IMG/VR virus record: IMGVR_UViG_3300001460_000022
Location: 5,780-69,779 of that record
Strand: one strand, 5' to 3'
Length of the DNA stretch: 64,000 bases
Source: a virus
Made by a program: the position numbers and the translations under genes. The notes under the pieces were generated by a model. That model was not told the DNA's origin. It saw nothing but the letters and a program-made list of their open reading frames with translations, and searched no databases. Positions 10,598 through 49,728 of this stretch are shown here, piece by piece (within the stretch, counting starts at the first letter, position 1; every line of letters begins with the position of its first letter).

Positions 10598-10603
10598 AAA
10601 GTC

Positions 10604-10631
10604 AATATAACCAGATCTCGAATTAAGTCAA
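10604..10631 (-). promoter_or_regulatory. sigma70-type promoter for a leaderless transcript
   Basis: TTGACT-16 bp-TATATT, then 6 nt to the ATG at 10597. Confidence 0.65.
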
Positions 10632-18897: not shown

Positions 18898-18898
18898 C

Positions 18899-25823: not shown

Positions 25824-25852
25824 ATGGTATGGAAAATGATAAAGAGAATAGT

Positions 25853-27356: not shown

Positions 27357-27394
27357 ATTACAATAGATTATCTTTTATAAGTTACACGAATTCA

Positions 27395-29648: not shown

Positions 29649-30769
29649 GTCATTTAGCTGAAGAATATGCAAAATCATGTGGGGTTAAAATTGGGAAACC
29701 GACTTTAAAGCCTCACTATTTTCCGATTTTGCAAGAAAAATATATAACAATCCACAATGATAAAAAAGTTCAATCAAAGGAATACAACATGTGGAATGAT
29801 GTTATTGATCTAATTAAACCTGAATTAGAAGATATTAAAATTATTCAAGTAGGAGCTTTTGGAGAAGATAAAATTGAAGGTGTCGATTTCCACATTCCTA
29901 CAAGCACACTAAAACAATGCGCTTATATAATTCAGAAAGGTATGGGACACGTTGGGATTGATAGCGTTCCAGTTCATATAGCTTCAGCACTAGATAAGCC
30001 TGTTGTGAGCATCTATGCTCACACTTATGCCAGCACATGCTCTCCACTTTGGAATGAAAAATCTAAATCAATAATTATTGAATCTGATAGAGGAGGAAAC
30101 AAACCCTCTTTTTCTTTAGAAGAAAGCCCAAAAACAATTAATTTCATTAAACCAGAAAAAATAGCACAAGCTATTCTTGATATCTTAAATATCGATAAAA
30201 CAATAAATCATCAAACTCTTTTTATAGGAAATAACTACACCTCTAATTTTGTCGAAATAATTCCAACAGAGAAAACTGGAGTTACTTCTGGTCATATAGA
30301 TGTAAGAATGGATTATGCTCATAATGAGGATGTCTTGGCAGATATTCTTCAAAGGAATAAAGCTGAAGTTACAACCTCAAAGCCTATCCACGAAAGTTTT
30401 TTAACATCTGGGAGAATCAATAAAATTATATATAAAACAGAAAAACTTGATCAAGAATTTTGTGAGGCCGTAAGAAAATCAGGCGTTTCTAATATTTTTA
30501 TATGCACATCTCCTGAAACCATATCTGAAGAACGACTAAATAATTTTGATCTTTTAATCAATAAATTAGATATTAAAGAAATAATTAAAAATAATAAAAA
30601 AAGAATTGAGATCAAAGACTTTGATAAAATCAAAATTAAAAGTGGGAAAAAAGTAGTTTGCGGGCAAGAAATTTACGAAAGTTTTTTTGACTTAAATAGC
30701 CGAAAAAATTTAGATGATTTTTATCTTGATTTAGATTTCTTTAGAGTTTACATTGAACCAGATGAGTAA
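29645..30769 (+). CDS. GT9-like (heptosyltransferase-fold) glycosyltransferase
   Basis: KEYNMW, IIQVG and VGIDSVPVHIASALDKPVVSIY. Confidence 0.8.
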   Translation: MSHLAEEYAKSCGVKIGKPTLKPHYFPILQEKYITIHNDKKVQSKEYNMWNDVIDLIKPELEDIKIIQVGAFGEDKIEGVDFHIPTSTLKQCAYIIQKGMGHVGIDSVPVHIASALDKPVVSIYAHTYASTCSPLWNEKSKSIIIESDRGGNKPSFSLEESPKTINFIKPEKIAQAILDILNIDKTINHQTLFIGNNYTSNFVEIIPTEKTGVTSGHIDVRMDYAHNEDVLADILQRNKAEVTTSKPIHESFLTSGRINKIIYKTEKLDQEFCEAVRKSGVSNIFICTSPETISEERLNNFDLLINKLDIKEIIKNNKKRIEIKDFDKIKIKSGKKVVCGQEIYESFFDLNSRKNLDDFYLDLDFFRVYIEPDE

Positions 30770-31535
30770 GAAAAAAATCTACGGACCAGATATTTATAAG
30801 CGAGATGAGAATGGATTGCTTGAAAATATAGACTACGAATTTAATGAAGATGGCTCTGTTAACTGGCGGGCAATGATTAAAGAGGAGTTTCTTTACCCAA
30901 ACAAAGATTGGTTTGCCTCAAGAAAAAAAGATGTTCCAAGTTCTGTAGAAGGTCTTTCTGATAAGCAGCTTCTTATCATGCTGGGAGGCATTAAGGAACT
31001 CGCCAAGATGCGCGGATACTACAAGGTAGCCTTTAAAACAGAGAATATCGCAGAAGGATATGTCACTGCTAAATGCACTATACAGTGGATTAATAACTAT
31101 GAATCTGCGGCTTGTGGGGTTTCTTACTCTGATGTAGCTAATGCCACTCTAGCAAATACAGACGCTTTTTGTGCTAAATTTCTAGAAACAATTGCTTGCA
31201 ATCGAGCTTTTGTCCGTTGTGTGCGTAATTATCTCAATATTCACATTGTGGGAGCAGATGAGATTGATAAGTCAAAAGGAGCTAATAATTCAAATACAGT
31301 TGAATACGATGCCTCTAGCGACTCTGCCATGTTGCCGTTAACGCCCGCAGGAACGCTTCAGAAGGCTTTGTCTGAAGAGTGGGGAGTAAAGTCCTTTGAG
31401 GACTTTAAACCTCTTCTCAGGGCATTCTGGAAGGAAGAAAAATACAGGAATGAAGAAGCTGCAAATTGGGAATCTTATGGAGATATCCCAGCAAAAGATT
31501 GCAGAAAATTGATCGCACTTTGCAAAAAATCATAA
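30762..31535 (+). CDS. Putative ssDNA-annealing protein (Rad52/Sak-like)
   Basis: GGIKELA...VTAKCTIQW...ETIACNRAFVRCVRNYLNI...DEI pattern resembles an annealase core. Near the SSB-like gene. Confidence 0.45.
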   Translation: MSKKKIYGPDIYKRDENGLLENIDYEFNEDGSVNWRAMIKEEFLYPNKDWFASRKKDVPSSVEGLSDKQLLIMLGGIKELAKMRGYYKVAFKTENIAEGYVTAKCTIQWINNYESAACGVSYSDVANATLANTDAFCAKFLETIACNRAFVRCVRNYLNIHIVGADEIDKSKGANNSNTVEYDASSDSAMLPLTPAGTLQKALSEEWGVKSFEDFKPLLRAFWKEEKYRNEEAANWESYGDIPAKDCRKLIALCKKS

Positions 31536-34049: not shown

Positions 34050-34894
34050 AATAAAAGAGAAGACCCTGATAATGGTTCTTCAAATGATTCGGTTAATCCT
34101 CCACTTATAGTGGCATCAAAGCCCGTCTTAATAATATTTACACCTGTGTAAAGTTCTAGATAATTACTTTGTGACTGAAGAATACCATTAACATAATAAT
34201 TATTTCTTTTTTCTATATATCCATCGGTAAATATAAAATCTGAATATCGCCCTGTTTGAGAAAATGTTCTTTTTGTTTTTTTATGAGCCGTATATTTAAA
34301 TTGATCTTGATTTTCTAGCTTAACAACTCCTGCAACATTCGCAGCAGTTGAGAAAAGTGGAATAAAGTCTAAATCTGTTGTCCCCATAGAAACACCTACC
34401 CCCACTCCAGAATATACTTTTTGTCCATTTAAAAAATAATCACAATCATTAAAGGTTACTGACCCGATACCTGCATTTATGTTTGTTTTTAAAGATTGTC
34501 CAAAATCTCCAGTCGCTGCAAATAGACCTCCAGTAACAATATTATATGTTAATTTTGAATCTCCGTTTTCTGGAGTTGTTTGATGAAAATATAATTTAGC
34601 TTTATCAAAATCATCTGACTCGTCTCCCTTTGTAAAAAAATCTCCTGTTTTTATATTATAAAAAGTCTCATTTGTAATCGTGGAAGTTAAAGGAACTTCT
34701 TGAAATAAACTCTGCCCATTCAAATATAAAGATACTTCTTGCTGGCCCGTGCTTACGGATCTGTCATAGAAAAAATCTCCTAAACTTCCAACAGCATCTC
34801 TATTTAATAAATCAAAAGTTTTCGTCCCTAAAATTTCCGAAGAACAATCAGAAACCAAAGCTCCACCAGTGCTTGAAACAACATCATAAATCAT
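34046..34894 (-). CDS. Tail structural protein
   Basis: Three Y/F-LNG/VNG repeats, ~11 [S/T]G dipeptides, and position in the tail module. Confidence 0.55.
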   Translation of the reverse strand: MIYDVVSSTGGALVSDCSSEILGTKTFDLLNRDAVGSLGDFFYDRSVSTGQQEVSLYLNGQSLFQEVPLTSTITNETFYNIKTGDFFTKGDESDDFDKAKLYFHQTTPENGDSKLTYNIVTGGLFAATGDFGQSLKTNINAGIGSVTFNDCDYFLNGQKVYSGVGVGVSMGTTDLDFIPLFSTAANVAGVVKLENQDQFKYTAHKKTKRTFSQTGRYSDFIFTDGYIEKRNNYYVNGILQSQSNYLELYTGVNIIKTGFDATISGGLTESFEEPLSGSSLLL

Positions 34895-36285
34895 TTTCTC
34901 TCCCCCTTATAATAAACGTAATCTTTTTTAAATAAATCTGATGGTCCAGAGAGGCTTACGCCAGAAGCTTTTAAAGCGGGCCTGTCTTCTACTGTTTCAA
35001 AAAGAGGGATCTGAGTAACTCCACTTATATCTGGTAAATCTCCAGCTTGAAATCTAAATCCATACAGTTTCACCCCGACAGTAGCAGAACCAGAAATACC
35101 TTTTCTTTCAATATAGTTTTGAACTTGTGATTCAACGTGACGAAGACCTAATGTTGAAAAAGCGCTATCTCCACTAGGCACATATTGATAACCAGAATCA
35201 GGATGAAGAAGACCTACTTGTTCTTTGTTAAAAGTTGTAACTCCTCCTTCTTCAAATGTATTATATTCAAAATAGACATCACCTTCAAATTTTGAAGCAG
35301 TAGAACTTGCTGTAAGCCCTCCTGTTAACATATATCTACCAGTAGAAATATTTAAACTTCCAGTGTTTTCATAGTCATATCCCGTTATACCTGTTTTAAA
35401 TGTAGTAACTTGTCTATATCCAGTAATTATTTTTTTGGTCGTTGCTCCTGTTTGACTTTCAAAAAATGAACCAATTAACCCACTTCCAATGCTAAACTCT
35501 AAACTTGGAGCGACATAACCAGATAATAAGCAAAAAGAATTCAGACTAATATCAGATGTTCTAAATTCGCCAGAAGGCCCAGCCGTTCCCCCTCTAAAAT
35601 ATTGATTAGAGCCTCCTAAATAAAATTCTGTATTATTACCAATGTAGCTAGAATCCACATTAAATGTCTCAGTCTCTAGGTTATGATTTAAGTAATCAAA
35701 TCTTGAAAGAGATAAGGTGTTTGACCCAACAGAAAACCCAACAATATTTCTTCTCGAAAGTTCTATCGAATTAGCGGTATAAATAAAATCTCCTCCTCTA
35801 TCAAACGATTGATAAAATAGTTTGCCCCTATCATTAACACCAAAATTAAAGCCCCTTGAACCAGTTACGACTAATCCATCAACACTTGTTGAGATTTTTT
35901 CAAGAGAACCAAAAATAACAGAGTCAGAAACTTCATTATTAAATTGAAAATCAACTACACTAGATAAAGAAGAATATTTAACTGCTGGTGTATCTACCCT
36001 TAACGTTGATTTACTTAAATCTGCCATATCATTACCCAGAAAAATTCCTGTAGTAAAGAGTTTCGCACCAGCAACGGTAGATTGTCCAGAATGAGTAACG
36101 ATCCCACTATATATCCCCGTGTTTACAGATGGATCACAATTTTCTATAACCCCATAGTTTAATCCTCCCGCAGATTCATTACCAATGTGTCTTCCACTCA
36201 TACCAGAAAAATCATAATAAGTCAAAATCTTTTGGTTACTTCCAAAAGATTCAATAATACTATAATTTAATCCCGACTGACTCAT
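34891..36285 (-). CDS. Tail structural protein (possible LamG/ConA-like domain)
   Basis: YYDFSG start, FNFGVN..GKL and FYLGG. ~24 [S/T]G dipeptides. Confidence 0.55.
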   Translation of the reverse strand: MSQSGLNYSIIESFGSNQKILTYYDFSGMSGRHIGNESAGGLNYGVIENCDPSVNTGIYSGIVTHSGQSTVAGAKLFTTGIFLGNDMADLSKSTLRVDTPAVKYSSLSSVVDFQFNNEVSDSVIFGSLEKISTSVDGLVVTGSRGFNFGVNDRGKLFYQSFDRGGDFIYTANSIELSRRNIVGFSVGSNTLSLSRFDYLNHNLETETFNVDSSYIGNNTEFYLGGSNQYFRGGTAGPSGEFRTSDISLNSFCLLSGYVAPSLEFSIGSGLIGSFFESQTGATTKKIITGYRQVTTFKTGITGYDYENTGSLNISTGRYMLTGGLTASSTASKFEGDVYFEYNTFEEGGVTTFNKEQVGLLHPDSGYQYVPSGDSAFSTLGLRHVESQVQNYIERKGISGSATVGVKLYGFRFQAGDLPDISGVTQIPLFETVEDRPALKASGVSLSGPSDLFKKDYVYYKGERK

Positions 36286-36286
36286 A

Positions 36287-37906
36287 TTAATAATACCTAC
36301 TCATATTATAAGAAATAGTTTGATCATTTAAACTACTACTTTCGTTAAAAGAAAATACTCCACTGGCATAACCACTAGATATTTCTATTAATTTTTGTAA
36401 ATCTCCAGTTGAAGCTTCACAACTAGCTGCAACAGCATACTCTCCTGCTCTCCTATTTACTAATTTTTGTTTAGCAAATCCCCCTAAACTTGGGACGATT
36501 CCACTCAACTCAATAGGTTTTTTATCTGTTATACTAATTTGCAATCCAGATAATTGACCAGAGGATAAATCTATCCTATTATCAAATTCTAAAGAATACG
36601 AGATAGAACTTTCTTGAGGGCTTTTCGTTATTTGTCTTGAGTTGGGATTTGGGTTTAGAAAGTCTCCGCTTATATTATAACCTGTTGCATCTCCTGTAAA
36701 ATCTTGCAGAGCTTCTATCGCTAAATTCAAAAACCCAGAGTTTGCTATGACACCACTATACTGAGCATCTACTTGTTTAAATCTTTCTCCAGTGGCAGGA
36801 TCTCCAGTGCCTATTATATCAAATGGTCCTTTGTATTTGAATTCTCCATTGATAGACACTCTGACTACTGATTCATCTTTACTAGCAGAAACTGTCGCTG
36901 ATCTAGTATGAAGAATATTCCCACTCCTATCTAAATTTTCTGGATCAGAAAAAGTATATGTAAAATTTACAACATTAGATCCAGTATCTAAATCATAACT
37001 AACAGTAGAAGGTCCATTATTTATAAAAGTATAAGAACCAGTTTCATAATTAGAAAGAGAAGAAGCTACAGCATTTACGGCTACTTGAGTTGCTTGACTT
37101 GAATCAAAAATACCAGTATCTAATAACCCTGTCCCGAATTGAGGAGAATCAAAACTTCCTTGAACTGATCCGTTGACAGTTACATTTAACCCGTCTTGTT
37201 TGTCAAAAGATATTTTTGTTGAACAATTTAAAATTCCAGATTTTGAAACTCCTGTTGTAGTCAAATCTTCGCTAGTGCTATACTTATAAACTTCATCTAT
37301 GGCGTATTCATTACTAGATTTATCGATGTTTTCAGTTCTTGAAAACAAGAACGCATTATTGTTAGCACCTGTTTGGAATAAACTTAAATCTCTACACCCA
37401 GTAGTTCTTCCTGTTACGAAATGTCTAGCATTCACCAAAGGATCACTGCTATCAACTTTAATTCCTTTTGCAGAAACGGAATGACTTACTTCTGTTATTC
37501 TTCCGTTTTGCTCTGAAAAATCCCATTCATCTTTTGGATTTTCTATCCCAAAAAACTGAGAAAAAGTTTCCTCCGAATAACTTTCAAAAGAAACGGAATA
37601 TGGCAAAACTGTTGTTAGATCAGAAGAATCGAAAGAAATTGATATAGGCTTCGCTGATGCGAATTGCTTATTGCTATCGTTATTGCTAATAGTAATAGTT
37701 TGAAATTCTGAAAGCATTCCGCTAATCATTTGCATTTTTTGCAAATGAAGGCCACTCAAGTTAGATCCAGTTAAATTGCCTACTATTTCTATAGAATTTT
37801 TAGTGTGGTCTACTGCTCCTTGGATATATACAGGCTCTACCCCATACCCAACTAATGGAGTCGGGTAAGGAAAACTATAAGATCCATATGTTACGGTTTC
37901 TGCCAT
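36287..37906 (-). CDS. Tail-tip structural protein
   Basis: Second gene after the tape measure. Beta-rich, and similar to 37906-39447. Confidence 0.55.
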   Translation of the reverse strand: MAETVTYGSYSFPYPTPLVGYGVEPVYIQGAVDHTKNSIEIVGNLTGSNLSGLHLQKMQMISGMLSEFQTITISNNDSNKQFASAKPISISFDSSDLTTVLPYSVSFESYSEETFSQFFGIENPKDEWDFSEQNGRITEVSHSVSAKGIKVDSSDPLVNARHFVTGRTTGCRDLSLFQTGANNNAFLFSRTENIDKSSNEYAIDEVYKYSTSEDLTTTGVSKSGILNCSTKISFDKQDGLNVTVNGSVQGSFDSPQFGTGLLDTGIFDSSQATQVAVNAVASSLSNYETGSYTFINNGPSTVSYDLDTGSNVVNFTYTFSDPENLDRSGNILHTRSATVSASKDESVVRVSINGEFKYKGPFDIIGTGDPATGERFKQVDAQYSGVIANSGFLNLAIEALQDFTGDATGYNISGDFLNPNPNSRQITKSPQESSISYSLEFDNRIDLSSGQLSGLQISITDKKPIELSGIVPSLGGFAKQKLVNRRAGEYAVAASCEASTGDLQKLIEISSGYASGVFSFNESSSLNDQTISYNMSRYY

Positions 37907-39447
37907 TATATAAATAAGTATTGTATACTTCGTGATGCGGTTCCTTGTCCTAGATTTAAGTTGATGACATCATTAATAATATGAATTACATTTTCGTCAA
38001 CCATCTCATTCATTTCAGATGTTTTTGACTCTAAAACATTTCTAACGTCATAAATTCCCATACTTTGACTTGTGACTGCTTCCGCTGTAACTGAAGCTTG
38101 ACCCACTGTTTTCTTATCATTAACTACAATTTGATCTTCTAAATTCACTAAATCTAAAAACTTATGAAGCCTATTAATTTTATGAGTCTTATTTAATGTT
38201 TTTTTAAATTTTAACAAACCATCATTATCATCTTTATAAGCGAGATCTGTTGTAAATGTTATGCTTTCATTAATAGATCCTTCTGATTTTTGGAATGTTG
38301 TAGATCTAGCCTTTTCAACTATATCAGTAACTGGATGAAATAGTCTTTTTACTTTATCTTGATTAAATGTTTGATTTGAAATCCAAGAGGTTTTGGTATT
38401 TAAAAATTTTTCTCTGTTATTCCTACCTTTATTGCTATATGTAATAGATAAAGAATATTCTATAAATCTACCTTGTTTTGTTTCAGCGCCAGAATATGAT
38501 ATTCTTTCGTCTTGTGATCGAGAAGGGTCTGTGCTAAAAGATATTGTTAATGAACCTGAATCCCCATCCTTTGTAATGCCCTTTTCAATTGATACTGGTG
38601 TACCAAATTCAGTTTCATTCTCAGAAGCGATTTCATCAATAATTGTCGCCATAGCAGAAGTAATAACATTTTCAGAATTTCGACTGAGAGAAGTTAAGTT
38701 AACTGTGTGTGTTTTATTTATAAATCCATTTTCTCCTATCTCAAGAGCTTGTGTTTGATTTTTACTAACTCCTTTTACGCCATCTATAAAAGAAGAATCA
38801 ACTTTCTCTGATAAGGAAACTGATAGATCTATTAAATTATAAGTTTCTGTTATTAAACCCCTGAATCCCTTATCAATTTTTGCTTTTTCCGAGATTCCAT
38901 CTTCTTGATATCCTAAAGATGGTCTATTGGCGAAATAATAATTAGTTAAAAATGTTTTCGCATCATTTAAAAATTGACTGCCAGCCTCTTGTTTATATTG
39001 TAAAGATATATTTCTATTAGAAGAATAATCCCCGCCAGATCTTTGAAAGTCATAAGTCTCTTTAAAGTTTTCTACTAAATTAGGATTTGGTATTAGTTTA
39101 GAAAATGTTTTAGAAGAATAATCATCAAGCCTTCTTGATTCTTGTATCACTATAGAAACTATTTCAGAACCTACTAAAGTTCCAGCACTAAAATCAAACG
39201 ATTGTATTCTTCCTTTTAGATAATCGTCTGCTCCAATTCTGGCTACTATATTTTGCCTTTCATAAGCTGCTGTTATAGCATCTCTTCCTTGGATCAAAGT
39301 AGTATCATTTTGTTCAAAATTAATATCAGAGACATCTATTTCATATGTCCCTTCTACTTCATACCCAAATATTTCTTCTGTATCTAAATAAGAATAACTT
39401 ACCTCAACAGCGGAAGATAATACATTATTGACTATAAGTGCTGCCAT
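37906..39447 (-). CDS. Tail-tip structural protein (distal-tail position)
   Basis: Directly downstream of the tape measure. Beta-rich. Confidence 0.55.
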   Translation of the reverse strand: MAALIVNNVLSSAVEVSYSYLDTEEIFGYEVEGTYEIDVSDINFEQNDTTLIQGRDAITAAYERQNIVARIGADDYLKGRIQSFDFSAGTLVGSEIVSIVIQESRRLDDYSSKTFSKLIPNPNLVENFKETYDFQRSGGDYSSNRNISLQYKQEAGSQFLNDAKTFLTNYYFANRPSLGYQEDGISEKAKIDKGFRGLITETYNLIDLSVSLSEKVDSSFIDGVKGVSKNQTQALEIGENGFINKTHTVNLTSLSRNSENVITSAMATIIDEIASENETEFGTPVSIEKGITKDGDSGSLTISFSTDPSRSQDERISYSGAETKQGRFIEYSLSITYSNKGRNNREKFLNTKTSWISNQTFNQDKVKRLFHPVTDIVEKARSTTFQKSEGSINESITFTTDLAYKDDNDGLLKFKKTLNKTHKINRLHKFLDLVNLEDQIVVNDKKTVGQASVTAEAVTSQSMGIYDVRNVLESKTSEMNEMVDENVIHIINDVINLNLGQGTASRSIQYLFI

Positions 39448-39453
39448 AATAAA

Positions 39454-42400
39454 TTATTGTAAATCATCTACCTTGCCTTGTAATAGATCGACCTTGTTTT
39501 CTAGAGTAAGTAAATCTTTTCTTCTATTTTCCATGAATTTAGCGGCTTCTTCGACCAAAGCCGCTGCATTATTTGATGCTGTTAAATTCGATTCTGCAAA
39601 ATCCTTTACCTTCTCAAATGATCCGACAGAGTTTTTTAGTTCGCCTTGTAATGTTTTCAATGCTTCAGCGAAACCCTTTGTAGCCTCATTATTGTGAAGA
39701 GAATTAAAGGCTGTTTGAGATGCTGCCATTTCTGCCCTTAATGCCTCTTGTTGTTTAATTAATGATTTAGTTGATTGATCTAATTCTGCACCGAAATTAG
39801 TTTTTCCTATATTTACGAGGCTATCTGCAAATTTTGCTCGCTTGTCACCATCTTTTCCCTTTTCATTAACATTCTTATATTGGCCTCGAATAACAGCATT
39901 TCTTGCATCATCTATTTTTAATCTAAAGGCTTCAAGAGCCATTCCTGTTTTTCCTGTCGCTGCTGCAATTACTTCATTTACATTACCCAACCCTTTTGAA
40001 TCGAACCCTTCAAATAGTTGGCCCAGAGTTTGAGTTTCATTATCTGTTCTGTCTTTTTTGTTGATTAGATTAATGGCTCTCATAGCATCTTGAAAAGTCG
40101 CAGTAACATCAACTCCACCTTGTTTTATAAGATGATCACTCAATTTAGATAATCCTTCAGACATTCTTTTACGACCCTCTGATATTTTATCATCATTTTG
40201 AGCCATTAGTGCGCTAACATCTTCCATTTTGTTGAGAAATGATGTGCCAGCCTGTATAGCTGCTTTTTTAAACTTCTCTCCAGCTTCTGCCGCATTTTTT
40301 ATTAGCTCTTTGGTGTCTTGTAATCCTAAAGGTTTTTGTCTTTCTGCCGCTAATTTTGCGTCTGCCTTCATTTGATCTTGTCTTAACAAATTAATATTTG
40401 CTAATGCTGCATTCTGCTCTGAGGTTAACATTGTTGCAGATGCAAATGGGCTATCTTTACCTGCCGCCACTGTCAAACCAGATTGGATAGAAGCTCTTTC
40501 AGCCATACCCTTGACAGTTCTTCCCTTTAATCCTTTATTTACTCTTCCTTCAATATCTACAGCCTTTGACCTAGCAACAGCAAGTCTTTCGCTTGCTCTC
40601 GCAAGAGCATTATTTGCCTTTTCTAATTTTTTTTCATAATCCTCTTGCTCTCCAATGGTTTCAAATCTCATTCCAGCAAGGTCTCTTGAAGCTGCCGCTA
40701 ATCTATCTTGTGCTTGAGATAATTTCTCAAGATCTTGTTCTTCTTTTGAATATTCATCCTTTAAGGCTTTCATAGCCTGAACATATTCTTTTTGGATAAC
40801 GCTAGTGTCTTGACCTGCGGCTTGCATTTTGGTCATGTTTTCTGTCGCCCTGTCCATAAATCCCTGACTATTATTAAAGCCAAGTCTTCTATTTCTTGAT
40901 CCTGATGAAGAAACCTCTGCATATCTTTGCATAATTTTTGGATCAAGAGGCTCTGGTCCTTGAAACGCTGAAACTAGTCCTTTGCCCAAACTGCTTCCAG
41001 CAACCGCACCTACGCCTCCTCCTAATAAACCTCCAATTGCCATACCAACTGGCCCTCCAAAAGCTCCCGCCATAGCTCCTAATTTAGCCCCTGCCAATCC
41101 ACCAGCTAATGCTCCTCCTGCACCACCAAGTTCTTGATCTCTTTCTTGTGTAGTAATAGTTCCTGCTTTTTCCTGTTGGAAAGCATCGAAAGCACTAAAT
41201 CCAGCTAAACCAATAGCCAATGGGGCTCCACCAAGTTTGCCTAGTTTACCCACCTTTCCCATAGATCTAGTTCTGGCATTTGCGCTGCGTTGAAGATCAT
41301 TCGCTTTTCTTGTTGCAGTCTTACGATTAAACCCATCAGACATTAAAGACTTTTTTATAGCATGGCGACTTCGACCGCCCATAGGATCTTTGCTCATAGG
41401 CAAGCGACTCTGTATTCCCTGCCTCACCTTTGAGACTGCTCTAGTTCTACCAACAGAAGCTCCCACACGGCCCATCCCCGCTTGTACTCCTTTACCGACA
41501 CTTGAAAATGCTCTCCCGCCGATTCCTCCTGTGACCATATTAAGAGCAGACATTGCCATTAAAGCTGTCATCGCATGATTTGCGGCATTAGCAACGCCCT
41601 CTAGCCCACTATTGGCAGATGATTGCGCTCTTGAGGCATTATCAAGAAGCTGAATCTCTTGCATTTTAGTCGAGATACTTTTTTCGCTTGCCAGTATTTG
41701 ATCAATTTTAACTTCAGCGTCCATCTCAGTCGCATTAGCTGATTGATCTGTTGCAGAAGTAAGTGAGTTTAAAGCCATCTGCATTGAACCTAAAGCAATA
41801 ATGAAACCAGAAGCGCCGCTCATTAAACCGCCGCCACCCCCTTTTGCGTAATTTGGAATAAATCCTCCCGCAAACATGCCAATACCCTTGCGCTCTCTCT
41901 TTATAGCGTCTTGCACCCCGTTAGGCTCATCTCTTATATTTGTCAGAACCTTTCTTCCCTTATCATCAGAGTGTATCCTCATTAAAGACTGAGGAACGCC
42001 ACCTCCGTTAGCATAGTTTGGAACAAATCCTGCCGCAGCAGACATCGGAGCGCCCTTTCTTGGCAAGCTCCTCATGGTTTGTTGAATGAATTTATCTTTT
42101 TGCCCCTGACTGTTTTTAAAATCACCCCACTTGTAGTTCTTTCCAGTAATCCCAAATATTTCTTCTACAGCTTTATTGCCAGCAATATTAACATCTAAAG
42201 TATTGTTTCCTGTTCCAGATTTTATTCCACCAGTTACAGCCTCGATAATAGATTCAAAAATAGCTCCCCTTAATGCTCCAAAAGCACCTGCTCCACCCTC
42301 CTTTAAAACTCTTTGTTTTACTTGTTTCGTTGTAAACTTTCTAGGCTGCATTTTTAATTTGCCCCCACTCTTTGAAACAATGCTCTCCATAGAGTTATTA

Positions 42401-44565
42401 ACGCCTCTAGTTAAAGAAGCATCTAGGATTTGATCCATCCTTAACATTCTCCTAAACCCAGAGTCTTGTTTTAGATTGGGGTCTATTCCAGCAACACTTC
42501 CATCAAAACCCGAAAACCTTGATTCAAGTCTTTTTTTAGATTGGAAATTTGTCTTAAGAGCGCCTTCTAATAGAGCTTGAGCTTGAGGCACAAGCATCAG
42601 AGCTTTTTTACTATCTAAAGAGTCTGCATTATATCTAGGGAAGTTAGCTCCATCTGCCCTCTTAATAGCTCCTTTTCTATAGCCAGAGAGAGCCGCTTGC
42701 TCTGCTGATATTTGACCTGATTTTATTCTAGGAGATATTTGGGCTGCGCTTAAAGCAGGTCCAGCAAATCCTCCTATACCGAATTTATTATAATTAGGAA
42801 CAAATCCTCCAGCATAAGATGGTATTATAGCGGAGTCTTTGCCACCCGCAAAATTGCGGACCTCTGTCTCCTTATTATTCATGATAACTCTTCTCCCTTG
42901 AATCGTGCCATCACTTAACCTAGCTCTAACATCAGGAGGCGCTCCTAGCGCCCTTGCCTCTGCCTCTTCTGCTCTAAATCCCATACTGAATCTACCTCTT
43001 TTCCCAGTAAATCCACCTGTATTACTAAATCCTGTAACGCCTCTAGCAGCAGCCATATTAGCCAACCCTCTCATTAATTGAGCTTGTTGAGAGAGTAGAG
43101 CATTTTCTCTTTGAATTGCAGATATAACAGCTTGCTCTTTTTGAGCTTGGCTCATTGTAGTGCTTTCCATCTGCTTCCTCAAACTAGAATCTCTTTGAAG
43201 AAGCCCTACTATACCTCCTTCAATTTGTTTTATTTTCTCTGTTTGACTGCCCATTGAAAATAAAGCCCTCAAACCTTCTGATGCAAATTTAGCAACTAAT
43301 TTAAAAATTTTAACAAAAGCCGCTGTAAATATAACAACCGCTGGTCCACTTAAAAAAGAACCTATTGTTTTAAATAAACCTTTTACAAAAACATTCCCTT
43401 TCTCTGGATCTAAAGCTGTATTTAGAAAATCTGTAACTTTTGTTGCTATACCTACCAAGCCCTCAAGCAATGGACCAAATGTAACAGATCCAATCCTTTC
43501 AGCTAGAGAGGTGAGTCCTTGAACAAGTGAATTTATTTGAGCAGATATAGTTTCATTTAATAATTTATTTTTTTCAAAAGCTTCATTTGTGGCACTGGCA
43601 GCGGTCAAAGCAGCTTTTTGGAATATAGAAGTATTAGAACCCAAATCTTTTAATGAGGCACTAACTACGTTAATTTGGAAAACACCCCCTGCTAATTCCT
43701 TAATTTTAGAAACAACAGTGGGATCAGCGATACCTTCTATTGCATTAGATAAAGCCTGTAATTTTTGGACTCCAGACTGATTTGCATCAATCGCAACTCC
43801 TAATTCTTTCAGTTCTGAAATCGTTGTTCCTCTTTGTAGCCTTGTAAAAATAGATTTAAATGCGTTACCAATAACAGCACCTCCCCTTGAGGTTCTTTGT
43901 TCTACTGCTGTGATTAAACCAAGTAACTCATTAAAACTCACACCAGCATCCTCTGCTGTGGAACCTGCTCGCTGGAAAGCTGCGGCCAAATCATCCGTTG
44001 ATACAGCAAAAGCTGTATCCACAGCTACCATTTTATTAACAATCTGAGTATGAGAAAGTCCAGCAGATGTAAATCCATTTATAGCAGCAGTAAGAGCCTT
44101 TACAGACTTTTCTGCGTCCATGCCAGAAATCCTTGTAAGGATAAGGGCTGATTTAAGCCTAGAAGCAGTTTCTTCGGCACTTAAACCTTGCCTAGCTAAT
44201 TCTGCTGCTCCGTCTGCGACTGTAGCGAAAGACTGTCCTGTTTCTTTTGCTACTTGAAAGATAGAATTTCTAAACCTATTAAAATTACCTTCTGTTGCTT
44301 GAAAAATAGAATTAATTTCTGTTAATCTTTTTTGAACATCAATAGTTGTAGAAACAAGCTTTTTAAATGATTGCGTAACACCATTAATAACAACTGTGGT
44401 GGCACCAAAGGCAAAAACACGCGCAGTCGAAGCATCCAAAGATTTTTGGAACTCTGAAGCCTGTCCCGTAATCCTGCCTAAAGCCTGTTGAATCTGCTTT
44501 GTTGAAGCATTTAGGCTCTGTGGATTGAGACTTACATTTAAGGATGCATTTAAACTAGTCGCCAT
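39454..44565 (-). CDS. Tail tape measure protein (TP901-like core)
   Basis: 1703 aa, Ala/Gly-rich and helical. AELARQG, AVST.DLA and GAVIGNAFKSIFTR motifs, hydrophobic segments, glycine zippers, and GF(V/I)PNY repeats. Confidence 0.92.
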   Translation of the reverse strand: MATSLNASLNVSLNPQSLNASTKQIQQALGRITGQASEFQKSLDASTARVFAFGATTVVINGVTQSFKKLVSTTIDVQKRLTEINSIFQATEGNFNRFRNSIFQVAKETGQSFATVADGAAELARQGLSAEETASRLKSALILTRISGMDAEKSVKALTAAINGFTSAGLSHTQIVNKMVAVDTAFAVSTDDLAAAFQRAGSTAEDAGVSFNELLGLITAVEQRTSRGGAVIGNAFKSIFTRLQRGTTISELKELGVAIDANQSGVQKLQALSNAIEGIADPTVVSKIKELAGGVFQINVVSASLKDLGSNTSIFQKAALTAASATNEAFEKNKLLNETISAQINSLVQGLTSLAERIGSVTFGPLLEGLVGIATKVTDFLNTALDPEKGNVFVKGLFKTIGSFLSGPAVVIFTAAFVKIFKLVAKFASEGLRALFSMGSQTEKIKQIEGGIVGLLQRDSSLRKQMESTTMSQAQKEQAVISAIQRENALLSQQAQLMRGLANMAAARGVTGFSNTGGFTGKRGRFSMGFRAEEAEARALGAPPDVRARLSDGTIQGRRVIMNNKETEVRNFAGGKDSAIIPSYAGGFVPNYNKFGIGGFAGPALSAAQISPRIKSGQISAEQAALSGYRKGAIKRADGANFPRYNADSLDSKKALMLVPQAQALLEGALKTNFQSKKRLESRFSGFDGSVAGIDPNLKQDSGFRRMLRMDQILDASLTRGVNNSMESIVSKSGGKLKMQPRKFTTKQVKQRVLKEGGAGAFGALRGAIFESIIEAVTGGIKSGTGNNTLDVNIAGNKAVEEIFGITGKNYKWGDFKNSQGQKDKFIQQTMRSLPRKGAPMSAAAGFVPNYANGGGVPQSLMRIHSDDKGRKVLTNIRDEPNGVQDAIKRERKGIGMFAGGFIPNYAKGGGGGLMSGASGFIIALGSMQMALNSLTSATDQSANATEMDAEVKIDQILASEKSISTKMQEIQLLDNASRAQSSANSGLEGVANAANHAMTALMAMSALNMVTGGIGGRAFSSVGKGVQAGMGRVGASVGRTRAVSKVRQGIQSRLPMSKDPMGGRSRHAIKKSLMSDGFNRKTATRKANDLQRSANARTRSMGKVGKLGKLGGAPLAIGLAGFSAFDAFQQEKAGTITTQERDQELGGAGGALAGGLAGAKLGAMAGAFGGPVGMAIGGLLGGGVGAVAGSSLGKGLVSAFQGPEPLDPKIMQRYAEVSSSGSRNRRLGFNNSQGFMDRATENMTKMQAAGQDTSVIQKEYVQAMKALKDEYSKEEQDLEKLSQAQDRLAAASRDLAGMRFETIGEQEDYEKKLEKANNALARASERLAVARSKAVDIEGRVNKGLKGRTVKGMAERASIQSGLTVAAGKDSPFASATMLTSEQNAALANINLLRQDQMKADAKLAAERQKPLGLQDTKELIKNAAEAGEKFKKAAIQAGTSFLNKMEDVSALMAQNDDKISEGRKRMSEGLSKLSDHLIKQGGVDVTATFQDAMRAINLINKKDRTDNETQTLGQLFEGFDSKGLGNVNEVIAAATGKTGMALEAFRLKIDDARNAVIRGQYKNVNEKGKDGDKRAKFADSLVNIGKTNFGAELDQSTKSLIKQQEALRAEMAASQTAFNSLHNNEATKGFAEALKTLQGELKNSVGSFEKVKDFAESNLTASNNAAALVEEAAKFMENRRKDLLTLENKVDLLQGKVDDLQ

Positions 44566-44584: not shown

Positions 44585-45454
44585 TCAGGTCAAAAAGTCC
44601 TCTGCTTTAAGACTCCCTCCTCTAGCTTTCATTTTCAGTTTTAAATCGTCTATACCGTGAGTAACTTTAGCTTCTCCTTCTTCCTTTTCTTCATATTCTA
44701 ATATTTTAAGAGGATCATTAGATATTTCTTCTGGAATTCTAACATTCTTCATTTTATTAAATAATGCATTAGATAATATTAATAGATTTTTTTGAAAAAT
44801 TGTAATGGTATTAAAATTTACATTAAATAATTTTAATGGGTCTCTATACTGTGCTGCGTAAATGTCAAAAAACCCTCCAAAAAAAGAAGCTCCTAAAACA
44901 TTTTCTTTACTGCTTAATTCGGCATATCTTTTAAAAAGAGCTTCTGTTATATCAGTATCAGATACTTCTTCTAAATTTTCTGAGAATTGCTTATCTAAAT
45001 AAACACATTGGCAAACCATTTTTTTTACTTTTTTTATTTCAGATAAGCTTTCTGCGCTGTAAGAGATTATTCTTTTTCTTTTAAAACTTAAATCTTGCAC
45101 TTCTTTTCTTTGATTTTCAATTTGACTATTGAAAACCTTTCTTTGAGTAGGATCTTGAATTTTAGCTAAAGCTGTAGTAGATTTTTTTATCATCCATTCC
45201 AAAGATTTTATTTTTTCTTCTTCAGAATCAGACCAAGATCCTGCTTTTTTAGCTTCTTTAATCAACTGATCTTCCGTGTGGATTCCAGATTTTATAGAAT
45301 TAGCAACATCCGTTTTTTGTTCTTCATCAAGTTGAAGAATTTCCGTAAACAAAAAATGTTTAAAATAGTAATTTTTATCAGAGACCTTTAACACGCTAAA
45401 GCCTCTTGATATATCTAAAAGATCTCCAGAATAATTTTTTTCATTATTCCTCAT
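44585..45454 (-). CDS. Tail assembly chaperone-like protein 2
   Basis: Charged helical ORF immediately upstream of the tape measure. Start moved to the ATG at 45454. Confidence 0.5.
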   Translation of the reverse strand: MRNNEKNYSGDLLDISRGFSVLKVSDKNYYFKHFLFTEILQLDEEQKTDVANSIKSGIHTEDQLIKEAKKAGSWSDSEEEKIKSLEWMIKKSTTALAKIQDPTQRKVFNSQIENQRKEVQDLSFKRKRIISYSAESLSEIKKVKKMVCQCVYLDKQFSENLEEVSDTDITEALFKRYAELSSKENVLGASFFGGFFDIYAAQYRDPLKLFNVNFNTITIFQKNLLILSNALFNKMKNVRIPEEISNDPLKILEYEEKEEGEAKVTHGIDDLKLKMKARGGSLKAEDFLT

Positions 45455-46274
45455 TTTCTTCAGGTTCGTCCTCTTCAAACAAATCGTCTAAAGATTTTTG
45501 AATACTTTCCTGATCTTTCCCAAGTTGATTATACCAAATGCTTGAGACTTTAATCAACGTATCAAAAGCTGCTTCATATAGTTTTCTTAATTTTAAAAAA
45601 TCTATTTCACTTAATCCTGTATCTTCTACAGAAACTTCATCTTCTTCATCTTCTTGTAAAAGCAAAAGTAAATTTCTTTTACTCTTATAAGATTCTCCTT
45701 GGAAAATGGGGAATAATTGAGTTCTATCTTTATCTTTAACTTTATCTTCGTAATAAGAAAAATTTAAAACCAACCATTCTATTAATTTTTGTTCAGCTTT
45801 CGCATCTGCTGTTTGACCGAATTGATCTCTTAATGAAATCTCGTATTCAAAAATAGTCTTTTTAGTTTCTGCAAAAGTTTTTTCTGCTTTTTTTAATTTG
45901 GCACTTTGTTCTTCATTTAGAGATTCTGATCCTCCAAAAAATTCAATAGTTCTCGCAGCGTCAATATTTTCTAAAACAATTTCACTAACTGTTTCCGAGG
46001 TTGATTTTGAAGTGATCCCACCTAAATCACCCATCTTTTTAGCGAGCATGGCTTTTGTCAAAAACCCAGCATTAATTAGTTCATTAAATTTTTGTCCATA
46101 AAAGAAATCCGCTTCTTCCCTTTGAACGATTGTTGGTTTAATAAAAACAATCCTATTTTTAATGGTTTTAGTTACTCTTTTTGTAGTCTCGACAGGACCA
46201 TCCTTTGTCTTTTTAATGTGAGGGACTTCAGATTTAACCTCTCTTTTAACATCAAATGAATATAACTCTTTCAT
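45444..46274 (-). CDS. Tail assembly chaperone-like protein 1
   Basis: Charged helical ORF between the tube genes and the tape measure. The ATG at 46274 follows TTGATT-16-TATAAT by 7 nt. Confidence 0.5.
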   Translation of the reverse strand: MKELYSFDVKREVKSEVPHIKKTKDGPVETTKRVTKTIKNRIVFIKPTIVQREEADFFYGQKFNELINAGFLTKAMLAKKMGDLGGITSKSTSETVSEIVLENIDAARTIEFFGGSESLNEEQSAKLKKAEKTFAETKKTIFEYEISLRDQFGQTADAKAEQKLIEWLVLNFSYYEDKVKDKDRTQLFPIFQGESYKSKRNLLLLLQEDEEDEVSVEDTGLSEIDFLKLRKLYEAAFDTLIKVSSIWYNQLGKDQESIQKSLDDLFEEDEPEENEE

Positions 46275-46305
46275 TGATAATATTATATGAAATATTAAGG
46301 CAAAA

Positions 46306-47562
46306 TCAAAATTTAAAAAATGAAAATGAGTCAATATCGAATATTTTTAGTTTAAATCCCGTGTTAATACTCGCTGCGCTATCAGAAGCAGCTATTAATG
46401 TGTTTATATCCGAAGTAAAGTGAACGTAAGATGGCCCATCAGTAGTAGTAAAGTAACTAGTTAAAAGAACAGCCTCTCCTCCAATTATTAAAAATATTGG
46501 ATTCCCAGAATCTTGAACTGCAAGAAGTTCGGCTAAATTATCATAAGGATCTGGCACATTCGTGGGATTAGAATCAAAAACAGCTTCTTTTATTGTAAGG
46601 CTATTCGCAGCAGTCAATACGTTTAAAGTTAATTTTTTTTCAAAATCAAAACCTGCTACTATGGGCCTGTAATATTCTTCAATTATATTTACGCTTGTTG
46701 TTTTTAAATAATCATTAATATTTGAAGGCAAAACCTTTGAAAAAGAAATATTATCTGGAAGTTCTTCGTTTAAAACTCCCACAGAGATATCTTGACTAGC
46801 ATGATCTGCTGTAGCAGAAATTGTTCGTGAAACCCAAGTTCCATCAGGATCAACAAAATAAACAACATCAGAAGCTTGCAGTTTAAAATGCTTCGCCATT
46901 ATAATATGTCTTTTTGTAATTGCTGTTGCTCCTCTTTTTCTAAAATCTAATGGACTACCATGCCCACGATTGTTCCAAACAACAACTGAGGTGAAATCAA
47001 TATCTTTACCCCAAAAATCAGTTGAACGAGCAGCATTAAATCCTCCCCCGTTTAATGTTCCATTCGGGTCTGTAAAAGATGTTAACATACTAGCATTAGC
47101 AGCTACACTCATTGTGTTGGTGATATTATCGTTAATTTGTGAGGTAGAATGTTTTGCTAAAGAGTTTTTTGATTGGCCTGTTACAGAAAGTGACAGTTCT
47201 GAAGTGCCATTTTTATGAAAAGATAAAGAATTTATACTTTTATCAGTGGCTCCATTGGATTTTCCTGTTACATCTAACCCATTCGCGATTAAAGTCTCAT
47301 CTTTGTAATAAGAAAATGTGCTGTTCGCATAATCATAATGGGCTTCTAAATCAAAAGGAACTCCACTTTGATAACCTCCAAAAAAGTTTCCGCTTTGATC
47401 AAACAAATAACCGTCTGCCCCAGAAAATGTTATTAAATTAGAAGAGTAAAATTTTCCACTCTCAAATAAAGATAATTCAAAACCACTATCAGGACTATTT
47501 ATAACCAAAGATATGTCATATATAGCATTTTGATAATCGGAAAAACTTTCATTTATAATCAT
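46306..47562 (-). CDS. Trypsin/chymotrypsin-like serine protease fused to an N-terminal beta domain
   Basis: GATAITKRHIIMAKHF (His), QDISVGVL (Asp) and QDSGNP (Ser) occur in canonical order. Confidence 0.7.
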   Translation of the reverse strand: MIINESFSDYQNAIYDISLVINSPDSGFELSLFESGKFYSSNLITFSGADGYLFDQSGNFFGGYQSGVPFDLEAHYDYANSTFSYYKDETLIANGLDVTGKSNGATDKSINSLSFHKNGTSELSLSVTGQSKNSLAKHSTSQINDNITNTMSVAANASMLTSFTDPNGTLNGGGFNAARSTDFWGKDIDFTSVVVWNNRGHGSPLDFRKRGATAITKRHIIMAKHFKLQASDVVYFVDPDGTWVSRTISATADHASQDISVGVLNEELPDNISFSKVLPSNINDYLKTTSVNIIEEYYRPIVAGFDFEKKLTLNVLTAANSLTIKEAVFDSNPTNVPDPYDNLAELLAVQDSGNPIFLIIGGEAVLLTSYFTTTDGPSYVHFTSDINTLIAASDSAASINTGFKLKIFDIDSFSFFKF

Positions 47563-48416
47563 TGTATTATGGGGAAGTAGTAAGAAAAGTTTACTGTAGT
47601 ATTATCGTCTAAATTAGCGGATTCATCAACATTTTCTAAACAACAACCACTAGTAATAAAATCCATTAAAGAGTTCCCAAGATCATCTTTTAAATCAATT
47701 TTAATTACTCCGCTATCACAAACAAGGCTAGAAAGATTTAATCCTGTTACAGAATTTTTAATCATACTTACTTCTAAAGACCCTCCTGCTGGTAGATCTG
47801 GATATCTAAAACTAGGATTCCTTTGTCCTATTCTGGTGACATTTTTTCTAGGCAAATCTACGGAAATAGAAAAATCTTGTAAATATAAACTTTGAGTATT
47901 TATTCCTTCCTGACCATTTGTTACAGTCGTAATCTCTATTTTTTGAGGTCTAGCAAAACCCTTTATAAAATCATCATTTGTTTGCTCCTCTATACTTATA
48001 GCTCCAGCATCACTAAAAGTTGCTCCAACACCCTCGTATGTTGCTCCCCCTTTTATAAGTTCTCCTACACTAGCATTTATCGAATAACTCGTTAAAGAAG
48101 CATCGTTAATTATTGTAGACCCAACAGTGTCTTTAATTTGAAAATCAAATTTTCCAGTAGTAAGAAACCCTCCATGTCTTTGTTGAAATTGATAAAATGG
48201 ATCAACCCCAGTCGCCCCTGTAGTTAAAAGCATTTCCATGTCTAGCGTAGTTGTTTGATTGGCTGTTAAAACTCTTTCAGCTATATTAATAGTTCCCAAT
48301 CTTTGAATATCTTGAACTTCTTTTGGGGTCGAGAAAGATAAAGAATTTACTGCGGGTATGCGTGAACCATCAATAAATAATTGAGTGTCACTGGAATGTA
48401 TTCTATCTACAGCCAT
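47559..48416 (-). CDS. Tail tube-like protein (paralog of 48484-49728)
   Basis: Shares SYSIN..VGE, Q..SI.V...R.N....G and LDDN.TV motifs with the major tube protein. ATG at 48416, with GTGTAA 10 nt upstream. Confidence 0.65.
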   Translation of the reverse strand: MAVDRIHSSDTQLFIDGSRIPAVNSLSFSTPKEVQDIQRLGTINIAERVLTANQTTTLDMEMLLTTGATGVDPFYQFQQRHGGFLTTGKFDFQIKDTVGSTIINDASLTSYSINASVGELIKGGATYEGVGATFSDAGAISIEEQTNDDFIKGFARPQKIEITTVTNGQEGINTQSLYLQDFSISVDLPRKNVTRIGQRNPSFRYPDLPAGGSLEVSMIKNSVTGLNLSSLVCDSGVIKIDLKDDLGNSLMDFITSGCCLENVDESANLDDNTTVNFSYYFPIIQ

Positions 48417-48432
48417 ACACCCTACTTTACAC

Positions 48433-48462
48433 AAAAAAGCCCCGCATTTCTGCGAGGCTTTT
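48433..48462 (-). terminator. Intrinsic terminator after the major tail protein gene
   Basis: GCCUCGCA-GAAA-UGCGGGGC-UUUUUU. Confidence 0.85.
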
Positions 48463-48483
48463 CTGGTTAACATTTATACCATA

Positions 48484-49728
48484 TTAATATGGACCGAGCG
48501 CATTGAGCTTATCATATAAGTTTGTTGTCGCATTATAATTGTCTGATGGAGCATTACCTGCTGCATTTGCACAATTACCAGTGTAAAATAATCCTTGGCC
48601 TGTAACGGTAGGACCACCGATTTGAGCAGAGAATGTCAAGTCAACAGTCTCGTTATCGTCTAGTCCGACAGAGAACGCCTGAGAATCAAGAGATGCATTT
48701 TCTAGTCTGTATGCATGTTGAGCTACTCCAGCGTCATCTTTAACAGTGATAGTTACATCTGTTGTATCGTCTCCAGCAGTTCCTGTAAGAACCATATCAA
48801 GAGCACCTGTAGAGAAATTTTTAAGAAGCGCACTTACACTCATGGTGACATTGATTGGGAAATCCAAAGGTCTTGCAACTGCTCTCTCAGCACCAAGTGC
48901 AGAGATATTAGTTCTAGACATCGGAACCTCAATTGAACAACTTTGAATGTGCATGTCAGACATGTCTGTTCCTCCCCACGACCATTTCTTTCTATCAAAA
49001 CCGATAGTAACATCTTCTGGACGAAGAACTAAAACACCCATATCTCCAGTGCTAGGAGCATCAAGTCTATATTGACCAGTGTCTGCCCTTGCTCCATCAG
49101 CATTTAATGCTGGGTTATATAATCCAGAACTACTTGTTTGAATCTGAATATTTTGAGCTTCACCCTCAATATCCACTCTTGGAATTTCTCCAACAGCGAA
49201 ATTAACACTATAACTATTGATGATGCAGTTTCCAAGGGAGACGACATCAGAAGAAAGTCTTTCTGCGGGGCTAAAAGCTGATGCTTTAAAAGCATCCTCC
49301 CCCTCTTTAACAGTAAGAACATAAAGGTTTTTTTCTCTTTTTTGAGCGTCTTCTGTCATCACACCTGAAATAAATTGTGATTTGACTTTAGGCTCAGTGA
49401 GTGTGTCAAGCCCTACTGTATTGAAACCCAAAGTAGCTTCGTTTTCTCCATTCCCCAAGTAATATCCAAGTGAGAAAGTGGGGTTAAGTTCTGACATAGT
49501 TACTGTCCCGATTCGTGCTAACTGACCAAACTCTCTGACATCTTGTCTTGCACCTGCAAGATCAACATCAAAAGAGAAGGTATCGACACGATGAAGCTGT
49601 GTTGGGATAAATCCCTTAACCCCCGCTAGGGCGGCGCTACCACCAAACTCTGTTTGGACAGGCAGAAGTCCTGTAGGAGAAGCATAAACAGCCTTGCTTT
49701 GTGAAATTACTCTTGTTCTAGAAGCCAT
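48484..49728 (-). CDS. Major tail tube protein
   Basis: Follows the neck genes. Has tandem GTGTAA motifs upstream and its own terminator, as expected for an abundant virion protein. Beta-rich with an internal duplication. Confidence 0.7.
   Translation of the reverse strand: MASRTRVISQSKAVYASPTGLLPVQTEFGGSAALAGVKGFIPTQLHRVDTFSFDVDLAGARQDVREFGQLARIGTVTMSELNPTFSLGYYLGNGENEATLGFNTVGLDTLTEPKVKSQFISGVMTEDAQKREKNLYVLTVKEGEDAFKASAFSPAERLSSDVVSLGNCIINSYSVNFAVGEIPRVDIEGEAQNIQIQTSSSGLYNPALNADGARADTGQYRLDAPSTGDMGVLVLRPEDVTIGFDRKKWSWGGTDMSDMHIQSCSIEVPMSRTNISALGAERAVARPLDFPINVTMSVSALLKNFSTGALDMVLTGTAGDDTTDVTITVKDDAGVAQHAYRLENASLDSQAFSVGLDDNETVDLTFSAQIGGPTVTGQGLFYTGNCANAAGNAPSDNYNATTNLYDKLNALGPY

Follow-up and report, generated by a model that had tools for sequence, protein, structure and literature searches.

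Tape measure proteins (TMPs) with embedded enzymes are already known, as is TMP maturation in phages T5 and lambda. [quoted passage not shown] The subject of the present analysis is the TMP gene of an uncultured marine phage of about 70 kb, contained in a stretch of 64,000 nucleotides (positions 5,780 to 69,779 of IMG/VR record IMGVR_UViG_3300001460_000022) that is called the window throughout. The middle third of the encoded protein (amino acids, aa, 520-906) is a chain of three modules, pre1, segA and segB, each ending in a junction peptide of the form GF(V/I)PNY.

The gene and its recognizable N-terminal domain lie at the following window positions:

39454-44565, minus strand: TMP gene P0001, from the open reading frame (ORF) list and translation, 1703 aa; PF10145 E 2.6e-24
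43687-44256, minus strand: PhageMin_Tail domain PF10145, aa 104-293, part of the conserved N-terminal stretch of 519 aa

The ORF at 39454-44565 is a TP901-1-type TMP. PF10145 matches the 1703-aa protein at 86.7 bits (curated cut-off 33.2), and 11 of 12 matches in a PHROG scan are tail length tape measure proteins. The features of the class are present as well: the ORF is very long and belongs to the tail module, and the protein has membrane-type segments that are hydrophobic or rich in glycine. Its N-terminal 519 aa are 65-91% identical to those of 24 homologues.

The junction peptide and the modules it borders

Motifs and modules are arranged as follows, in the order of the protein; pLDDT stands for the predicted local distance difference test of AlphaFold2 and pTM for its predicted template modelling score:

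42808-43008, minus strand: module pre1, aa 520-586, small and beta-rich, four predicted strands at pLDDT 64-80, beginning RFSMGF
42790-42807, minus strand: junction motif 1, GFVPNY, aa 587-592, by matrix score, in a linker with pLDDT <50
42031-42789, minus strand: module segA, aa 593-845 (253 aa), predicted basic alpha/beta domain, AlphaFold2 pLDDT 80, pTM 0.69
42013-42030, minus strand: junction motif 2, GFVPNY, aa 846-851, by matrix score, in a linker with pLDDT <50
41866-42012, minus strand: module segB, aa 852-900, conserved consensus GGGVP..MRIH.DD.G..VLTN.RDEPNG...KRER.GIGM
41848-41865, minus strand: junction motif 3, GFIPNY, aa 901-906, by matrix score, followed by AKGGGGG

The preliminary description of this DNA had proposed three GF(V/I)PNY repeats in the TMP, and all three are present, YAGGFVPNY at 42790-42816 corresponding to aa 584-592 and the other copies starting at aa 846 and 901. 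By composition 5.4e-6 copies of GF[VI]PNY would be expected in the protein, and not even one copy appears in any of 20,000 shuffled sequences. A position matrix derived from homologue copies gives the three sites 33-39 bits and the next best site -16, so that there are exactly three copies and no hidden fourth. A degenerate FSMGF that had been noted near 42980 corresponds to aa 526-530 (42976-42990); regarding it as a decayed joint is reasonable because it forms the conserved start of pre1 (consensus RF..GFRAEEAEA) and because relatives with the other pre1 type read PFAVGG at this place, similar to FATGG of lambda.

A word-indexed search with aa 520-930 as query (E <=1e-3) found 68 homologous proteins, all of them metagenomic and mostly TMPs of 1.6-2.9 thousand aa, and a scan of IMG/VR found 80 loci. 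Under the strict pattern the number of copies per TMP ranges from 0 to 8, the locus L041 having 8. Many middle copies that seem to be absent are variants of the form G(Y/L/I)(I/V)PN(Y/F), which some relatives have at motif 2. With the broad motif, 95 of the 115 representatives of at least 1000 aa in the segA-profile set described below contain at least one copy, the distribution being 2 representatives with one, 19 with two, 38 with three, 28 with four, 5 with five, 2 with seven and 1 with eight copies, the maximum. Among 101 non-redundant windows of 86 residues centred on the motif, conservation is confined to positions -2 to +6 (A 77%, G, F, I/V, P, N, F/Y, A 59%), and the flanks are variable. 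Because all residues around it vary, the peptide is a short linear motif and not the end of a long repeat. Judging by these alignments and by the model described next, the whole TMP family shares (A)xGF(V/I)PN(Y/F)(A) as a motif of this kind, lying in putatively unstructured linkers. Literature searches with the motif strings and for motif-fenced TMP modules found no description, and neither the TMP gene (megablast) nor aa 517-930 (tblastn) had a match among the 50,697 deposited phage records of INPHARED.

In the clade of the window, hidden Markov models (HMMs) cut from the alignment give the module order pre1, motif, segA, motif, segB, motif. In an AlphaFold2 model of aa 517-930, computed from a 40-row alignment (mean pLDDT 63.8), each of the three motifs falls in a stretch of pLDDT <50 between better-predicted blocks. 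The earlier suggestion that the repeats stand at module borders agrees with this, since these linkers match the points where the similarity of homologues switches. The identity of pre1 to its homologues is bimodal, either 21-28% or 43-91%; the window carries pre1 type A, and type B is found in relatives such as L001. In a BLASTP comparison of pre1 (window TMP aa 541-579, LSDGTIQGRRVIMNN) with pb2C of T5 (L081 aa 1157-1197, LSDGSKTTSGRPIILN) the E value was 0.54, which is not significant. For segB, HMM matches precede a motif in most relatives, and the model consists of a weakly predicted hairpin and a helix. A distant segB unit, L080, had no match by tblastn among the cultured phages of INPHARED.

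In the pairwise alignment of the window TMP with P0020, identity switches exactly at the motifs, amounting to 91% in pre1, 25-26% in segA, 88% in segB and 25-35% past motif 3. P0002, the closest relative overall, is 91% identical in the N-terminal part and about 80% in segA, whereas its pre1 is merely 24% identical because it carries another pre1 type. Type B of pre1 occurs alongside several segA lineages. If an identity jump is defined as a change of at least 50 points between adjacent 30-residue windows, 60 homologues display 90 jumps, 57 of which are situated beside motifs (25 at aa 590-609, 5 at aa 840-859, and 27 at aa 900-919). For the 65 TMPs with full architecture (2080 pairs, near-duplicates included), Spearman correlations of module distances are 0.09 between pre1 and segA and 0.06 between segA and segB; discordant pairs number 217 with pre1 at >=75% and segA at <=35%, and 4 the other way round. 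As adjacent modules have unlinked histories and 57 of the 90 jumps lie beside motifs, module borders are supported as exchange joints, which fits the earlier proposal that the repeats serve as recombination joints. The motifs mark, as far as can be read from the alignments, borders where relatives carry different versions of a module.

Third codon positions are nearly saturated in most segments, so that much of the module history is old and unequal constraint may account for part of the pattern. With L018 the window TMP has motif 2, segB and motif 3 in common as a block whose third-codon identity is 23/29 (79%) compared with 47-49% in the N-terminal part, suggesting a more recent transfer. The three motif copies of the window TMP are conserved in amino acids and differ in codons; since 1-3 of the 18 bases that encode the hexapeptide vary between copies, identity of the motif DNA was judged a weak candidate for the sole driver of recombination.

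The segA domain

The segment of about 250 aa between the first two repeats had been called basic and globular-looking, and both words hold: segA contains 40 K+R and 20 D+E (isoelectric point, pI, 10.3), and the AlphaFold2 model, based on a 54-row alignment, predicts a folded alpha/beta domain in which several short strands and a pair of long helices (segA residues 113-140 and 154-186) are followed by a strand-short helix-strand-helix unit. It is neither a predicted extended helix nor invariant among homologues. The three landmarks GAIFE (aa 767-771), TLDV (aa 789-792) and WGDFK (aa 813-817) are all present in the TMP and contain a conserved polar tetrad:

42115-42255, minus strand: conserved polar tetrad E771 (42253-42255), D791 (42193-42195), D815 (42121-42123) and K817 (42115-42117)

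In the model E771 lies in a helix and D815-x-K817 in a strand. The four residues are invariant in 54 sequences, and in 134 further cluster representatives the first position is E in 126 and D in 7, the second D in 133, the third D in 119 and E in 12, and the fourth K in 131, the acidic positions changing by E/D swaps only. G767 and F770 are present in 133 of the 134, while the remainder of segA diverges to 14-25% identity.

When 1.84 billion representatives were searched by HMMER with a segA profile, 287 clusters (clustered at 50% identity) matched with E <=1e-3, among them 64 with E <=1e-30. Among the 150 clusters listed of these 287, nearly all are of TMP length and have the domain at about aa 600-900. 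A separate search among proteins of 106-469 aa revealed no stand-alone segA; of eight short matches from the search of the representatives, six lack a starting Met and are cut gene calls, and P0117 and P0182 start with Met but have unrelated tails at the end. On this distribution segA is a fast-diverging basic domain of predicted alpha/beta type that is confined to TMPs, and its tetrad is probably a functional polar site. As segA matches no family or fold, this functional site is proposed from conservation.

The preliminary description had seen the segments between the repeats as polymorphic effector cassettes. For this clade the idea does not hold, because the slot between motifs 1 and 2 contains segA, one fast-diverging resident domain, in nearly all relatives. 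The related expectation that repeat number and inter-repeat domains vary between conserved flanks was borne out for copy number, which ranges from 0 to 8, and for the conserved N-terminal 519 aa, but not for the slot itself, where segA is found nearly throughout. Extra unrelated modules between motifs occur only in larger, distant TMPs, and almost all of them belong to no known family. Pfam searches of segA and 12 giant TMP relatives gave no toxin family, only sub-threshold matches. These are an AAA_33 match (P-loop kinase-like) in L061 (locus 8291-20200) at aa 2406-2543, between motifs at 2289 and 2639, with 25.8 bits (cut-off 27), and an HHH_3 match (helix-hairpin-helix) in P0154 at aa 2701-2751 with 26.9 bits (cut-off 27).

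Whether segA is an enzyme of a known kind was addressed by several searches. Pfam assigns no family to segA itself, and over 37 aligned members no family recurs, 11 families being matched by one member each. A phmmer search against PDB sequences found nothing credible for segA, and the segA profile matched only stathmin and uL23 among PDB sequences (E 0.016-0.04), no HHpred-type library search having been made. The fold search of the inter-repeat segment that had been recommended was carried out with Foldseek on a domain that is indeed predicted to be folded, and it produced no nuclease match, the best E values being 0.85 against PDB and 0.96 against BFVD. VIA-align listed no nuclease, lysozyme or other enzyme fold; in both searches the rows were filled by the helical hairpin, and the non-helical C-terminal core was barely covered. 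The 414-aa model had no match among PDB structures, and in two look-ups of the ESM Atlas the best scores were 0.84 and 0.80, both below lead level. A lysozyme-like reading, with Glu in a helix and Asp in a sheet, was considered as well; SLT or lysozyme families of Pfam did not match.

According to the preliminary description, segA displays the residue order of restriction-endonuclease-fold nucleases. The ordered [E/D]...D...[D/E]xK is kept almost throughout the family, whereas no restriction-endonuclease fold turned up in structure searches that barely covered the C-terminal core. A nuclease is one possibility among several for what segA may be, but the fuller proposal, that segA is a PD-(D/E)xK nuclease, released by cuts at the motifs and delivered into the host as an effector, seems quite unlikely to us. 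It would account for a tetrad that is nearly universal and tolerates only acidic-for-acidic swaps, as expected of metal ligands, and for the high pI. The predicted positions of the glutamate in a helix and of DxK in a strand would suit it, as would the near-threshold HHH_3 match in the distant giant TMP P0154. The spacing of 24 residues between D and DxK in segA is within the usual range for PD-(D/E)xK nucleases. Against it stand the lack of a recurring Pfam family, the chance-level profile matches in PDB and the Foldseek E values, together with the absence of stand-alone homologues among proteins of 106-469 aa and the clusters listed. Moreover, in the predicted model the strands of D791 and of DxK are separated by a helix, and the E771 helix leads to D791 with no strand in between, an order that departs from the alpha-beta-beta-beta-alpha-beta core of PD-(D/E)xK enzymes and its usual hairpin.

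Possible roles of the junction peptide

We somewhat favour, as slightly better than an even chance, the reading that these TMPs contain separately evolving modules fenced by a peptide that is read by a partner and permits exchange, and that the segA tetrad is functional. The peptide would be conserved because a conserved partner reads it, the likeliest candidate being an activity that trims tape measures during tail maturation, by analogy with the FVPR/AEGG site of T5 pb2 (the slash marks the cut). Separation of the modules would take place before ejection or in its course. With one peptide closing every module, recombinants joined at this peptide would presumably stay functional, and the modules would be exchangeable. 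After the TMP has left the tail, the tetrad site of segA, whether for catalysis or for binding of a metal or another ligand, might act in the host envelope or cytoplasm.

The comparison with T5 that suggests processing, and with it the candidate role of GF(V/I)PNY as a TMP cleavage site, starts from the T5 record, which reads NSFVPR/AEGGMMYPG around the cut. The pattern F[VI]P.{1,2}A.GG has a single match in T5 pb2, at the cut site, compared with a match in one of 20,000 shuffled sequences, although the pattern was written after viewing both proteins; in the window TMP it occurs at motifs 2 and 3. Asn-driven self-cleavage at P-N-[FY] was considered and set aside, as the T5 site, if homologous, has R there.

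Several points weigh against the favoured reading. The shuffle count for the T5 pattern overstates its significance because the pattern is post hoc, T5 has R in place of the N-Y of the motif, and cleavage at the motif is argued from analogy. In T5 and lambda the cut frees a short C-terminal piece, whereas the motifs here are located at 35-53% of the chain; for lambda gpH, according to the section of the source used here, the exact cut site is unmapped and the protease unknown (PMC12617516). Twenty of the 115 long representatives have no motif copy at all, and several segA-bearing loci are without the motif under the strict pattern. Near-duplicates are present among the 65 TMPs. Synonymous sites are almost saturated in most comparisons, so that unequal constraint instead of exchange could lie behind many of the jumps, a caveat from which the two pre1 types and the segB block in common with L018 are exempt. 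Finally, segA matched no enzyme family or solved fold in the searches described.

The segments that bear on alternative roles are the following, the motif-bearing middle region being flanked by the first two:

43279-43380, minus strand: hydrophobic segment 1, aa 396-429, Kyte-Doolittle maximum 1.87 with window 19
41770-41826, minus strand: hydrophobic segment 2, aa 914-932, immediately past motif 3, by hydropathy
40984-41235, minus strand: glycine-zipper-like hydrophobic segments, aa 1111-1129 and 1162-1194, by hydropathy; glycine content of aa 1151-1200 is 36%

The motif might instead remain uncut and serve for docking or handling, its conserved reader being the tail assembly chaperones, the lumen of the tube or, on the host side, a periplasmic chaperone or prolyl isomerase, while the modules stay one chain forming a channel across the envelope and segA is a host-contact or channel part under arms-race pressure. 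Conservation of amino acids with differing codons in the three copies would agree with such a role, as would the aromatic-aliphatic-Pro character of the motif, which presumably resembles the SurA-binding peptide WEYIPNV, and the position of the motif-fenced region between hydrophobic segments. In addition, as far as the SNIPE report was drawn on, parts of the TMP make contact with ManYZ of the host and with the defence nuclease SNIPE, and susceptibility to SNIPE changes along with differences or escape mutations in short regions of TMPs (PMC13190303), contacts that would explain fast-diverging modules without any cargo. However, a partner has to be postulated, the likeness to the cut site of T5 points towards processing, and a near-universal acidic/lysine tetrad would be unusual for a mere contact surface, so that we regard this explanation as rather unlikely, if worth keeping in view. 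The motif could also be nothing but a structural hinge or turn for folding or tube packing, with neither exchange nor read-out and with jumps that reflect unequal constraint. Predicted disorder at the motifs would fit a hinge, and in most pairs the conserved and the variable segments differ little in third-codon identity, which is almost saturated. Yet discordance runs both ways, P0002 having the closest segA with another pre1 and P0020 near-identical pre1 and segB with 25% identity in segA; pre1 type B is combined with several segA lineages, the segB block that L018 also has is younger than the sequence around it, and copy number (0-8) and spacing of the motif vary, with unrelated inserts. 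These observations make a mere hinge highly improbable.

A much stronger form of the favoured reading would be that TMPs of this widespread marine clade are polyproteins cut at the junctions by the maturation activity that also acts on T5 pb2, freeing a fast-evolving, metal-dependent nuclease-like enzyme of new fold that is exclusive to TMPs and enters the host before the DNA, with modules swapped among phages by recombination thanks to the shared junction. This we hold to be decidedly improbable. Returning to the favoured reading of partner-read, exchange-permitting junctions, its interest lies partly in the fact that the site and manner of TMP trimming are given as open since the 1970s-1980s in the part of the literature used here (PMC12617516), and that the motif resembles the single mapped TMP cut site, that of T5 pb2. 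A peptide conserved across hundreds of TMP clusters offers a concrete sequence for mutation and for searches of virion proteomes. The motif also defines natural module borders in a protein which, in the excerpts available to us, meets membrane proteins of the host and also defence nucleases while injection proceeds (PMC13190303), and such borders help in understanding host range and defence escape and in tail engineering. With segA comes a domain restricted to TMPs, with what looks like an active site and without known relatives.

Genomic setting and comparison with known systems

The genome, one contig of 69,779 bp, has genes for a polymerase of DnaE type, a helicase similar to DnaB, a RecA-like protein, a ribonucleotide reductase and a large terminase, and for this reason is taken to be that of a phage. 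The replication genes (DnaE, DnaB-like, RecA-like and ribonucleotide reductase) are located at 485-3046, 6856-8394, 9034-10161 and 20701-22347, all on the minus strand. The DNA polymerase III alpha (DnaE) homologue is of bacterial type (PF07733, E 4.8e-59) and has finger and HHH_6 domains in addition. Window positions 18899-20443 (minus strand) and 27930-30769 (plus strand) hold a carbamoyltransferase (PF16861, E 2.1e-55) and two glycosyltransferase-like genes (weak GT1 and GT9 matches). The latter two belong to a plus-strand island at 24158-31535 in the otherwise minus-strand genome. No tRNA genes were found. A host assignment was attempted, but only three contigs of metagenome-assembled genomes matched (L083-L085, from Flavobacteriales, Neomarinimicrobiota and Bacillota), too weak a basis for a firm host.

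Directly upstream of the TMP gene are two minus-strand ORFs of 296-297 aa at 44585-45478 and 45444-46334 with a 35-base overlap; this is the usual place of frameshifted tail assembly chaperones, and the pair has no Pfam or PHROG match. The PHROG scan of ten structural ORFs, nine flanking the TMP gene in 31530-39447 and 46306-49728 (minus strand) and one at 54610-56109, gave no match. The sole Pfam hint is a sub-threshold match to the tail-tube family DUF2001 (E 0.0044) at 47559-48473, four ORFs upstream of the TMP gene. The virion module is very distant from described phages. The G+C content is 0.39-0.42 in 40001-44000, within the TMP gene, compared with 0.29-0.36 over most of the window, and the higher value is consistent with the glycine- and alanine-rich segments.

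Among described systems, T5 pb2, which is processed to pb2* and pb2C, is similar in being a long TMP with hydrophobic stretches whose cut site FVPR/AEGG resembles GF(V/I)PNYA.GG at motifs 2 and 3 of the window; in the portion of its description used here, the cut separates an enzymatic part from the rest. The differences are that T5 has one site near the C-terminus, freeing 92 aa, whereas three sites lie in mid-chain here, that the freed T5 piece has a metallopeptidase motif (again by that portion) whereas segA matches no known family, and that overall similarity between the two proteins is not significant (best BLASTP E 0.54). In lambda gpH, processed to gpH* and gpHC, a GEFV module is bracketed by FATGGF and YATGGYV. 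Residues 754-784 of gpH align with pre1 of L001, which is of type B, and in this alignment GYATGGYV stands opposite the junction motif (E 0.010, in a single comparison). However, the lambda joint is [FY]A.GG[FY] without P-N-[FY], gpH contains neither segA nor segB, and the pre1 of the window is of type A and not B. TMPs of the TM4 type also contain a conserved non-ruler domain that is presumed to act after ejection; in the part of the TM4 account considered, those domains are members of muralytic families already known and have no repeated peptide as a fence, in contrast to segA, which matches no family. Sle1-type effectors, compared by their description only, likewise consist of a conserved part and structurally diverse, exchangeable domains on a TMP-derived platform, but they are cargo of a tail-like particle and not a phage ruler, and their published summary mentions no GF(V/I)PN(Y/F) junction such as the one that borders the modules of the TMP described here.

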